Positions 2,126 to 3,913 of a DNA stretch of 3,913 nucleotides are shown in pieces. The position numbers and the translations under genes were made by a program. Within the stretch, counting starts at the first letter, position 1. The number at the start of each line of letters is the position of its first letter. Source of the stretch: a virus (lineage: Duplodnaviria > Heunggongvirae > Uroviricota > Caudoviricetes). Location: the IMG/VR virus record IMGVR_UViG_2684622669_000022, positions 1-3,913 of that record, one strand, 5' to 3'. The notes beneath the pieces are model-generated. The model was not told where the DNA came from and made no database searches. It saw nothing but the letters and a program-made list of their open reading frames with translations.

Positions 2126-2640
2126 AACGAATGACACTAATTGAGATGGATGGATTTCTGAAAGGTAAATGCATCTCATGTGATTTAAAGGTTAACGAAA
2201 CAAATGCTGAATATATGGTGCGTAAATTTGCTGAAGCTGAGGCCAAGTGCGCGGCGCTGGCAGCGGAGAATGCGGGGCTGAAGTCTGGCGCTATGGACGA
2301 AATCAAGGTTATCAACCGTGGAGGGCAGGCATATTGCGTAAAAGATGGAGTGCAAGTTAATCCCATGTATGCAAGAGGGTGGAATGACTATCGCGCAAAG
2401 TTTCTGCAATCAGACACCCCAGCCACCGATGCTTTCCTGGCTGAAGTACGAGCGCAGGGCGTGGATGCTGCTATAGAAGCTGCAAAAAATCTGGTGGCCC
2501 AAGAATATGAGTATAAGGATTTCAAAGCGGCGCAGAGTGATTGCTGTATGCACCCTGGTTCAGACCTGGTAGGGAAGGTTGAAATGACTGAGTGGTTAGT
2601 TGACTTTGCTTCCCAGCTTCGCAAAGGAGTGCGGTCATGA
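2122..2640 (+). CDS. Hypothetical prophage protein (172 aa, several Cys residues)
   Basis: ATG 2122 is preceded by GGAG (2109-2112). The ORF track begins at GTG 2104; I prefer ATG 2122 because of the ATGA overlap with the upstream stop. Contains CISC, YCVKDG and DCCMH; no family recognised. Confidence 0.7.
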
Positions 2641-3305
2641 GCAACATCGATAAACGCGCATTACGTCATAGCGCAGAAAGCATAATCGGCATTCTGGAAA
2701 ACATTGCCGGGTTCGAACCATCTGATATCGACGGCGACTCTGTAGAGCTCCGCTTTGAAACTGAGGACGGTTTCGATACTGGTTGTGACGTTAGCATTGT
2801 TGACCAGTGCCAGAAAACCGCTGATGTAGTTCGGGCGCTGCTGGATGAGCTGGAAAGAAACCAGCAATACATCAAACGCCGCGACCAGGAGAACGAGGAT
2901 ATTGCGCTAACGGTAGGGAAGCTGCGTGTTGAGCTGGAAGCCGCAGAGAACAACCTTATTGATAGTGAGTGCCATGTTGCTGAACTGGAAGAAGCGCTAC
3001 ACGATAAGCAGGCGTTACTTGAAGCATCAGAGAAGCGCATAGCAGAACTGGAAGCCGAACTTGTAAGCCAGACTTACAAGTTGAACGAGCTGTCGGGCAA
3101 CTCTCCGGTAACTCCGGATGGTTGGATAAGCTGTAGTGATCGAATGCCAAGCGAAGAAGATGTTTTGGTTTATTGCTCAGACACAAAAGAGCAGATGGTA
3201 GGGTTTCACAAAGGTAAAGGGTTATTTCAATTCTTTTACATGAATGGTGTTGAGGGGGTATGTGAGCCGTCACACTGGATGCCGCTACCAGAGCCTCCAC
3301 TTTGA
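2637..3305 (+). CDS. Ea22-like coiled-coil protein with a DUF551-like C-terminal domain
   Basis: ATG 2637 overlaps the upstream stop as ATGA and is preceded by AAGGAG (2624-2629). The protein has three parts: an N-terminal domain, a central Glu/Leu-rich heptad region (LDELERNQQ...AELEEALHDKQALLEASEKRIAELEAEL), and a C-terminal module ending in HWMPLPEPPL. That ending resembles the DUF551 tail of enterobacterial prophage Ead/Ea22-like proteins as I recall them. Confidence 0.75.
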   Translation: MSNIDKRALRHSAESIIGILENIAGFEPSDIDGDSVELRFETEDGFDTGCDVSIVDQCQKTADVVRALLDELERNQQYIKRRDQENEDIALTVGKLRVELEAAENNLIDSECHVAELEEALHDKQALLEASEKRIAELEAELVSQTYKLNELSGNSPVTPDGWISCSDRMPSEEDVLVYCSDTKEQMVGFHKGKGLFQFFYMNGVEGVCEPSHWMPLPEPPL

Positions 3306-3389
3306 AAGCGAAGCTTATACATATCTTTTACATCAGCAATCTATTGTTAATCTCCAATCAATGTTACGTTGTCATCTCACTCATGCTTT

Positions 3390-3394
3390 GGAGG
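3390..3394 (+). promoter_or_regulatory. Shine-Dalgarno (GGAGG) for the zinc-ribbon ORF
   Basis: GGAGG lies 7 nt upstream of ATG 3402; it is the best consensus match in the window. Confidence 0.65.
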
Positions 3395-3401
3395 TAGTGA
3401 T

Positions 3402-3581
3402 ATGTCTTGTCCAAAATGCGGTTCTGGAAATATTGCAAAAGAAAAAACAATGCGTGGATGGTCTGGTGATTATGTGTGCTGCGATTGCGGATACAACGAC
3501 TCTAAAGACGCATTTGGAGAGCGTGGTAAAAACGAGTTTGTTAAAATTAATAAAGAACGCGAAGGCAACGAAAAAAGCTAA
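3402..3581 (+). CDS. Small zinc-ribbon protein (59 aa; CPKC ... CCDC)
   Basis: MSCPKCGSGNIAKEKTMRGWSGDYVCCDCGY has two Cys pairs about 20 residues apart, followed by a Lys/Glu-rich tail. Strong Shine-Dalgarno. The ORF track starts it at TTG 3369, but ATG 3402 has the ribosome-binding site. It is the last gene before the terminator and xis, the position of ea8.5 in lambda. Confidence 0.7.
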   Translation: MSCPKCGSGNIAKEKTMRGWSGDYVCCDCGYNDSKDAFGERGKNEFVKINKEREGNEKS

Positions 3582-3645
3582 TTTATTTATTCATATATTA
3601 ATACAATGTAACCAATATTCGAATTGAAGAACTGAAAGAACACCA

Positions 3646-3668
3646 AGCCGCCTGATGGCGGTTTTTTA
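3646..3668 (+). terminator. Rho-independent terminator (GC stem, UGAU loop, T-tract)
   Basis: GCCGCC (3647-3652) pairs with GGCGG (3657-3661) around the loop TGAT, followed by six T residues (3662-3667). The reverse strand has no T-run after the hairpin, so it should act only on + strand transcripts. Confidence 0.6.
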
Positions 3669-3712
3669 TTGCCTGATTTGCAGGTTCGATTCCCTATTCG
3701 GAGATAGCACTC

Positions 3713-3913
3713 ATGCAACACGAACTACAACCTGATTCACTGGTTGATTTGAAATTCATCATGGCTGATACTGGCTTTGGTAAAACCTTCATCTATGACC
3801 GGATTAAGTCCGGAGACCTGCCTAAAGCTAAAGTTATCCACGGGCGAGCAAGATGGTTATATCGTGACCATTGTGAATTCAAAAATAAGCTCTTAAGCCG
3901 CGCCAATGGGTAA
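3713..3913 (+). CDS. xis: AlpA-family excisionase / phage DNA-binding regulator (Xis)
   Basis: 66-aa ORF with GGAGA (3700-3704) 8 nt upstream. LVDLKFIMADTGFGKTFIYDRIKSGDLPKAKVIHGRARWLYRDHCEF fits the AlpA/Vis-type winged-helix pattern. It lies at the distal end of the early-left operon, where xis precedes int in lambdoid phages. Confidence 0.8.
   Translation: MQHELQPDSLVDLKFIMADTGFGKTFIYDRIKSGDLPKAKVIHGRARWLYRDHCEFKNKLLSRANG

Follow-up and report, generated by a model that had tools for sequence, protein, structure and literature searches.

On sequence comparison, the 59-codon gene near the 3' end of the DNA analyzed here is eaG, known from phage P22, and its product is predicted to be a small zinc-ribbon protein. 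Our preferred reading, to which we give a probability of about 40%, is that EaG serves host takeover or counter-defence by binding a protein target. The flagged gene corresponds to eaG of P22, to hkaD of HK620, to the PGAP product "Eag protein" and to phrog_2945.

The stretch analyzed (3,913 nucleotides, referred to as the window) comes from a P22/Sf6/HK620-like lambdoid phage or prophage, of whose early-left operon it spans the distal part. It begins with a small recombinase-associated gene (positions 247-417), followed by genes for an Erf/Rad52-like annealase (426-1133), a single-stranded DNA-binding protein (SSB; 1134-1640), the anti-RecBCD protein Abc2 (1654-1950), a DUF2737 protein (1961-2125) and an unnamed protein of 178 codons (2104 or 2122 to 2640). 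The upstream neighbour of eaG encodes an Ead/Ea22-like protein with a DUF551 domain (2637-3305, plus strand; Pfam Ead_Ea22, 1.3e-21, and DUF551, 2.9e-18). After eaG itself (3402-3581, plus strand), which was assigned from phrog_2945, identity to named EaG proteins, an AF2 model and signs of selection, comes a TorI-type excisionase gene (3713-3913, plus strand; hkaC in HK620), recognized from the HK620 annotation and phrog_66 (excisionase). In an identical E. coli locus, PGAP names the excisionase gene torI. TorI stands for TorR inhibitor, and the torI module without eaG matches more than 2,900 E. coli genomes, K-12 KplE1 included. The HK620 record places a promoter annotated as cII activated 5' of the TorI gene (about 3668-3706); the annotated cII site reads TTGC-N5-TTGC at 3669-3681, while the lambda spacing is TTGC-N6-TTGC. 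The 178-codon open reading frame (ORF) was listed with a GTG start at 2104 that has no Shine-Dalgarno (SD) sequence. Its start is more likely ATG 2122, because this codon overlaps the DUF2737 stop (ATGA) and is preceded by GGAGTGGGAAG.

The gene is already known and has been annotated since GenBank L06296. The window protein matched phrog_2945 over residues 1-58 (E = 1.7e-31), a group that PHROGs labels as unknown function, and was identical to the proteins of Huey and HK629 (100%), with 98% identity to HK620 HkaD and 95% to P22 EaG. At the nucleotide level, HK620 was 99.3% identical over a 413-nt region (3300-3712) and P22 97.6% identical over 3300-3671. The leader, ribosome-binding site and terminator are shared with P22 and HK620 as well, whereas the flanks differ: Ead/DUF551 upstream and TorI downstream in the window, EaA and EaC in P22. 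Curated product labels read "EaG, putative" or "EaG(?)" (original P22 record), with a terminator placed directly after the gene. PGAP reports an "Eag protein" in 329 of 5,426 complete E. coli genomes (~6%), and eaG is among the prophage genes of O104:H4 outbreak strains. Full-text literature searches for functional work on EaG or hkaD returned annotation tables only, in keeping with the original prediction, which had described the role as unknown. eaG is a nonessential accessory gene and lies distally in the early-left (pL) operon.

Read from ATG 3402 to TAA 3579-3581 on the plus strand, eaG translates to MSCPKCGSGNIAKEKTMRGWSGDYVCCDCGYNDSKDAFGERGKNEFVKINKEREGNEKS (59 aa). An SD sequence, GGAGG (3390-3394, plus strand), is separated from the ATG by the 7-nt spacer TAGTGAT, so the predicted protein length, motif and spacing all agree with our coordinates. 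Pairing of this site with the 3' end of 16S rRNA was scored at -10.6 kcal/mol; the remaining eight of the nine gene starts scored gave weaker values, from -8.8 to +0.3 kcal/mol. The proposal that eaG has the strongest ribosome-binding site in the window is thus borne out among gene starts, SD-like strings as strong or stronger being present inside genes at 1064 and 3252. The gene had also been described as the last one before a terminator, and a rho-independent terminator equivalent to lambda t'I (3645-3670, plus strand) indeed starts 63 nt past its stop codon. It was located by a terminator scan, a centroid fold and the annotation of P22 records, and no other strong plus-strand terminator is present in the window's 3' half. 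Its sequence is AAGCCGCC-TGAT-GGCGGTTT followed by a T-run, which gives an 8-bp GC-rich stem and a 4-nt loop.

Searches with a word-indexed method yielded mostly near-identical proteins, together with frameshifted copies that slip at A-runs. True homologues, at 30 to 70% identity, were obtained by an exhaustive HMMER search and a profile search. They came from Cronobacter, Enterobacter, Yersinia, Serratia, Salmonella, Vibrio, Colwellia and metagenomes. Residues C3, P4, C6, S8, K13, G22, D23, C26, C29 and F38 were invariant in 12 diverse members. Across 39 members, C6, D23, C26 and C29 were invariant and K13 and G22 nearly so; C3 was invariant save in the most remote subgroup, whose first knuckle appears to be C-x-H and which retains "KEYYLGSQTGDYVC..CG". 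The motifs in the window protein are C3-P-K-C6 and C26-C27-D28-C29. Position 27 varies among homologues (G, V, S, D, L, E or N), and the ligand set is therefore C3, C6, C26 and C29, with the "CC" being incidental. A lack of cysteine conservation in homologues had been named as what would speak against the original prediction. The four ligand cysteines are kept, and the CPKC...CCDC zinc ribbon stands with respect to these but not with respect to C27. The family signature is CPxCGS-x4-K[ED]-x4/5-G-x-[ST]-G-D-Y-[VI]-C-x2-CG ... F, all residues of which are present in the window protein. Its K-[ED]-x5-G-x-[ST]-G-D-Y-[VI]-C-x2-C-G portion and the cysteines are kept down to about 30% identity.

Close eaG alleles are more than 95% identical and hence carry little selective information, frameshifted copies occur in databases, and the leader is conserved at least as well as the ORF. 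These observations could be taken to mean that the ORF is hitch-hiking or decaying sequence, conserved only through the recent spread of a DNA cassette. We consider this very improbable, given that homologues at 30 to 57% identity in unrelated contexts keep the length, start, SD sequence, zinc ligands and GDY motif. In distant pairs, pN was about 0.32 and pS 0.65 to 0.8 (synonymous sites being saturated), with a corrected omega of 0.14 to 0.34 where computable. As pN lies well under the saturated pS, EaG is a selected protein. The ORF was intact in 76 of 78 IMG/VR contigs, with amino acid changes concentrated in residues 40-57, and in divergent homologues the eaG reading frame alone stays open. 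Judging from these comparisons, eaG encodes a real protein under purifying selection.

Two other frames are also fully open across eaG in the E. coli and P22 alleles, namely the +1 frame, with an ORF of 127 codons (3244-3627), and one antisense frame. Both contain stops in most divergent homologues, and from this pattern they are probably noncoding. The frameshifted copies (P0010, P0016, P0018, P0026, P0027, P0029, P0033 and P0034) can pose as "divergent homologues"; the slippage sites are the A6 runs at 3442-3447 and 3571-3576. A -1 shift at GAAAAAAGC joins EaG to the frame of an orf55 remnant (…KKLIYLFIYENNVTNIRIEELKEHQAA) in P22/HK620-type alleles, and in the window the -1 frame after GAAAAAAGC ends after 8 codons at TAA 3599-3601. 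We rejected a programmed -1 frameshift at this site. The fused forms are rare singletons in databases, and they most likely result from mutation or homopolymer sequencing error. A further match, P0039 (3,904 aa; HMMER E = 7e-10), consists of Ser/Asp/Pro-rich repeats without CxxC pairs and was discarded as a compositional false positive.

Residues 1-38 are predicted to form one C4 zinc ribbon, its ligands being C3, C6, C26 and C29. The AF2 model, based on the 39-sequence alignment, has a zinc ribbon at residues 1-40 with strands at 11-15 and 21-26 (pLDDT of 76 to 82) and, at residues 41-59, a disordered, K/E-rich, variable tail of mixed charge. No helix is present in the confident part of the model. 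Together with the conserved cysteines, the modelled fold agrees with the earlier description of a small zinc-ribbon protein. Some C(P)XCG micro-proteins are reported not to bind zinc (PMC11241148). The conserved nonligand residues cluster in the hairpin between the knuckles, where they form a patch of S8, K13, E/D14, G19, W/Q20, S/T21, G22, D23, Y24 and F38. By reading the sequence, we counted 5 basic and 5 acidic ionizable side chains in the ribbon, which is thus balanced, and the whole-protein pI is 6.2 to 8.3 in the E. coli/P22 alleles. The top neighbours in fold searches were all generic zinc ribbons with nonsignificant scores.

A binder seems more plausible to us than an enzyme or a DNA-binding protein because EaG has about 38 folded residues, the strongest ribosome-binding site of the operon, balanced charge and clustered hairpin residues. 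A protein target is favored by the small size, the near-neutral charge, the abundance signal, the mosaic and sporadic distribution and the company of Abc2, Ral, Kil and Gam. The early-operon context in the window places the anti-RecBCD protein Abc2, Erf and SSB nearby, and Ral, Gam, Kil and cIII accompany eaG in other prophages. Under the protein-target reading, EaG would be translated efficiently, early after infection or induction, and would act stoichiometrically as a small binding module. The conserved face of the hairpin, containing the GDY motif, may dock onto a host or competitor protein and modulate or inhibit it. EaG would then serve host takeover or counter-defence as an accessory factor, in the manner of the neighbours Abc2, Ral, Kil and Gam in the operon, and would be neither an enzyme nor a regulator of integration or excision.

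Alternatively, EaG may be directed at nucleic acids: the ribbon and its charged tail could bind DNA or RNA, or they could dock onto RNA polymerase or the ribosome and in this way tune host or phage expression. Zinc ribbons are just as often nucleic acid or RNA polymerase/ribosome binders, and the best weak sequence matches of EaG were to TFIIB/TFS ribbons and to the archaeal ribosome-associated HVO_2753/aS21 ribbon (all subthreshold). In several homologues, moreover, the tail is strongly basic and carries a K-W-K-L-K motif (pI of 9 to 10), which fits nucleic acid binding better. We regard a nucleic acid-directed role as rather doubtful.

The HVO_2753/aS21 (PF07754) and TFIIB/TFS ribbons share the CPxCG-x19-CxxCG spacing with EaG. 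HVO_2753 has two ribbon motifs (four CxxC), whereas EaG has one, which aligns only to the second motif. Membership in the HVO_2753/aS21 family was rejected, as the scores were 21.2 bits versus 33.2 for PF07754 and 18 versus 80 for NF041909 and the knuckles alone matched. To our knowledge, neither HVO_2753/aS21-type nor TFIIB/TFS ribbons have a functional link to bacteria or phages. The PADLOC defence models gave only spurious matches to Cas12 zinc-ribbon fragments (E > 0.004).

Another family that EaG resembles is Lar/RalR. EaG could in principle be a divergent protein of this type, alleviating type I restriction like the Lar protein of Rac or acting as a small DNase toxin like RalR. Lar_restr_allev was the top Pfam match (E = 7e-5), 8 of 12 members matched it, and the same assignment is precomputed for many cluster representatives. 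EaG and RalR aligned by BLASTP at an E value of 0.001, and Rac RalR occupies an analogous slot between recT and xisR. Lar/RalR is likewise a small (64 aa) prophage C4 zinc ribbon with an N-terminal CPxCG, encoded between recombination genes and xis. Both curated thresholds were missed, however: with PF14354 the score of 23.4 bits fell short of the gathering score (28.6), and for TIGR03655 (anti_R_Lar) homologues reached 16.4 to 19.9 bits against a cut-off of 39.6, with no match of the window protein at E ≤ 0.01. RalR itself gave 53.5 bits. Profile-profile comparison of EaG and Lar gave a probability of 10 to 30% with the knuckles alone aligned. Lar has a C-terminal helix motif, W-N-x-R, after the second knuckle, and no residue replaces W50, N51 or R53 in the alignment of that family. 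The motif is absent from 39 of 39 EaG-family sequences, and the GDY signature of EaG is absent from Lar. A Yersinia prophage (L010) carries a bona fide Lar gene two genes upstream of the EaG homologue in the same operon, and Ral and EaG co-occur in other prophages; hence, these are not interchangeable alternatives. A promoter scan and Rfam revealed no antisense promoter or RalA-like RNA at eaG. EaG is therefore not a member of the Lar family, as it falls below both thresholds and has no W-N-x-R, and it is unlikely to be a functional substitute for Lar. We regard the Lar/RalR-type reading as a whole as improbable.

The original prediction had compared the position of the gene with that of lambda ea8.5, noting that a positional match is not evidence of homology. 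Indeed, neither lambda Ea8.5 nor Orf55 has sequence similarity to EaG: BLASTP of Ea8.5 against EaG gave no alignment at E ≤ 100, and the hhalign probability was 0.8%. In lambda, ea8.5 and orf55 (lambdap35) both lie between ea22 and xis, Ea8.5 has a hybrid homeodomain/zinc-finger fold, and Orf55 is a small alpha/beta protein (PMC8614690). The helical Ea8.5 thus differs from EaG, for which the model predicts an all-beta zinc ribbon and a disordered tail. What the lambda genes do share with eaG is the interval from an ea22-like gene to the excisionase gene. The comparison with an ea8.5 slot just upstream of xis holds for this interval and fails in its details, as lambda has two genes there and the neighbour in the window is a TorI-type gene rather than lambda xis. 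A trace of the lambda arrangement is present 3' of eaG. Sixty nucleotides at 3608-3668 are identical in the window, lambda (NC_001416, 29106-29165), P22 and HK620, and in lambda this segment encodes the Orf55 C terminus and the t'I terminator. This 60-nt identity identifies the noncoding 3'-end remnant of orf55 (3608-3656, plus strand; ending in ...VTNIRIEELKEHQAA* in lambda), the frame of which is closed in the window by TAA 3599-3601. From the identity and the closed frame, we infer that ea8.5 and most of orf55 gave way to the eaG cassette, and that the final ~47 nt of orf55 persist 3' of eaG together with the t'I terminator. On the evidence of the alignment, the remnant marks an old recombination joint. 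A similar "portion of orf55" has been described in phage 933W (PMC8614690).

eaG travels as a low-GC cassette of ~375 bp that is shuffled among many lambdoid backbones via conserved joints. The cassette (3296-3671, plus strand) comprises the C-terminal DUF551 joint, the leader, eaG, the orf55 remnant and the terminator, and its GC content is 36%, compared to 46% for the window. Compared with the window without gaps, 78 IMG/VR loci had identities of 0.95 to 1.00 from about 3295 to about 3671, dropping to 0.25 to 0.46 in both flanks. The left joint consists of the last ~10 codons (HWMPLPEPPL) of the upstream gene, the C terminus of DUF551, and the variable upstream ORF ends in this motif in about 80 of 82 loci. 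Diverse upstream ORFs of about 65 to 417 codons, in the window (3276-3305) and in loci L024-L103, have the common end (T/S)HWMPLPEPPL, which looks like a conserved "linker" for mosaic exchange. On the right, the joint is the orf55/t'I remnant and the cassette ends with the terminator. At least five different modules are found 3' of the terminator, among them torI, the P22 eaC type and the lambda xis type, and the K-12 KplE1 prophage carries the torI module but lacks the eaG cassette. We rejected the DUF551 protein as a functional partner of EaG, since the upstream neighbours of divergent copies are not DUF551 proteins. The linkage is tight in E. coli/Salmonella phages and lost in divergent homologues, and it therefore reflects a recombination joint and not a partnership.

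Between the joint and eaG lies an untranslated leader of 96 nt with 35% GC (3306-3401, plus strand). Such a gap is unusual in this operon, whose other genes abut or overlap. The leader is 98 to 100% identical in the 78 loci, above the 3' half of the ORF. A consensus scan detected no sigma-70 promoter in it; the best promoter-like candidate read by hand was TTGTTA (3344-3349), N15 and TGtTACGTT (3362-3370). As the leader has no convincing promoter, expression is most simply explained by read-through from pL. We also rejected an RNA element in the leader: Rfam gave no match, and the predicted structure was no better than that of shuffled sequences (z = +0.77). In the minimum free-energy fold, CUCCAA (3352-3357) pairs with the SD sequence across a 30-nt loop, a pairing without further support. 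Morons are self-contained promoter-gene-terminator insertions in phage genomes. Like these, eaG is a discrete low-GC cassette with a leader, a strong ribosome-binding site and a terminator, set between conserved joints; unlike these, its leader in the window has no convincing sigma-70 promoter by the consensus scan. A Yersinia homologue (L009-L011, 4850-5260) is more moron-like, being bracketed by two hairpin terminators with a perfect TATAAT upstream.

In HK620-, P22- and lambda-like prophages, eaG directly precedes a terminator and a promoter, after which come torI/xis and int. The gene might for this reason help to control integration and excision or the lysis-lysogeny decision, as reported for genes of the lambda exo-xis region. 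The contexts of some divergent homologues speak against such a role. While those of Cronobacter and Yersinia prophages follow a 100- to 150-nt gap in early-left operons, others sit between Ead-like genes and NinB/NinG/Q in the early-right nin region, one within a lytic-type replication module, and one in a Vibrio island without int or xis (L012). The nin, replication and Vibrio contexts indicate that eaG is not functionally tied to xis/int. The variety of at least five unrelated modules 3' of the cassette also counts against this role, and EaG has no homology to any studied exo-xis protein. We therefore consider a part in integration or the lysis-lysogeny decision quite unlikely.

A binder of a host or competitor protein remains our preferred reading. 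In a broader version, which we think rather doubtful, EaG would found a widespread family of phage zinc-ribbon micro-proteins whose members inhibit a host immunity or core-machinery protein stoichiometrically and form a new inhibitor class, and the cassette, with its invariant leader, would be a mobile, independently regulated counter-defence unit exchanged via the DUF551 and orf55/t'I joints. Should a host defence or core enzyme prove to be inhibited by EaG, the protein would provide a minimal inhibitor scaffold of 38 residues; otherwise, eaG is a routine accessory gene, one of many encoding conserved, well-expressed lambdoid accessory micro-proteins that have been annotated for decades. To the existing annotation, this analysis adds the true ligand set, the family signature and a GDY hairpin patch for mutagenesis. 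It also excludes membership in the Ea8.5, Orf55, Lar and aS21 families and defines the ~375-bp cassette with its joints as independent of xis/int.

Some individual loci had features of their own. In the Vibrio island (L012), the family member stands alone, with a SNIPE/T5orf172 nuclease gene on one side and DUF4238/KAP-NTPase genes on the other, and in L013 the remote C-x-H variant P0093 is flanked by an ImmA-like peptidase gene and a Multi_ubiq/ThiF/BubE (Bub-like) operon. Directly 3' of the EaG homologue in the Cronobacter prophages (L006-L008, about 5185-5240), TTGACA and then TACTGTATATAAATACAGT occur, the latter being a near-perfect LexA (SOS) box before an unannotated ORF of 84 aa. In a degraded prophage of E. 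coli KBN10P04869 (L015; NZ_CP026473), a truncated nin-region metallophosphoesterase gene is joined 5 nt before the eaG ATG. This deletion removes the leader and the SD sequence, and eaG, an HTH/excisionase gene and a pseudogenized integrase gene remain.
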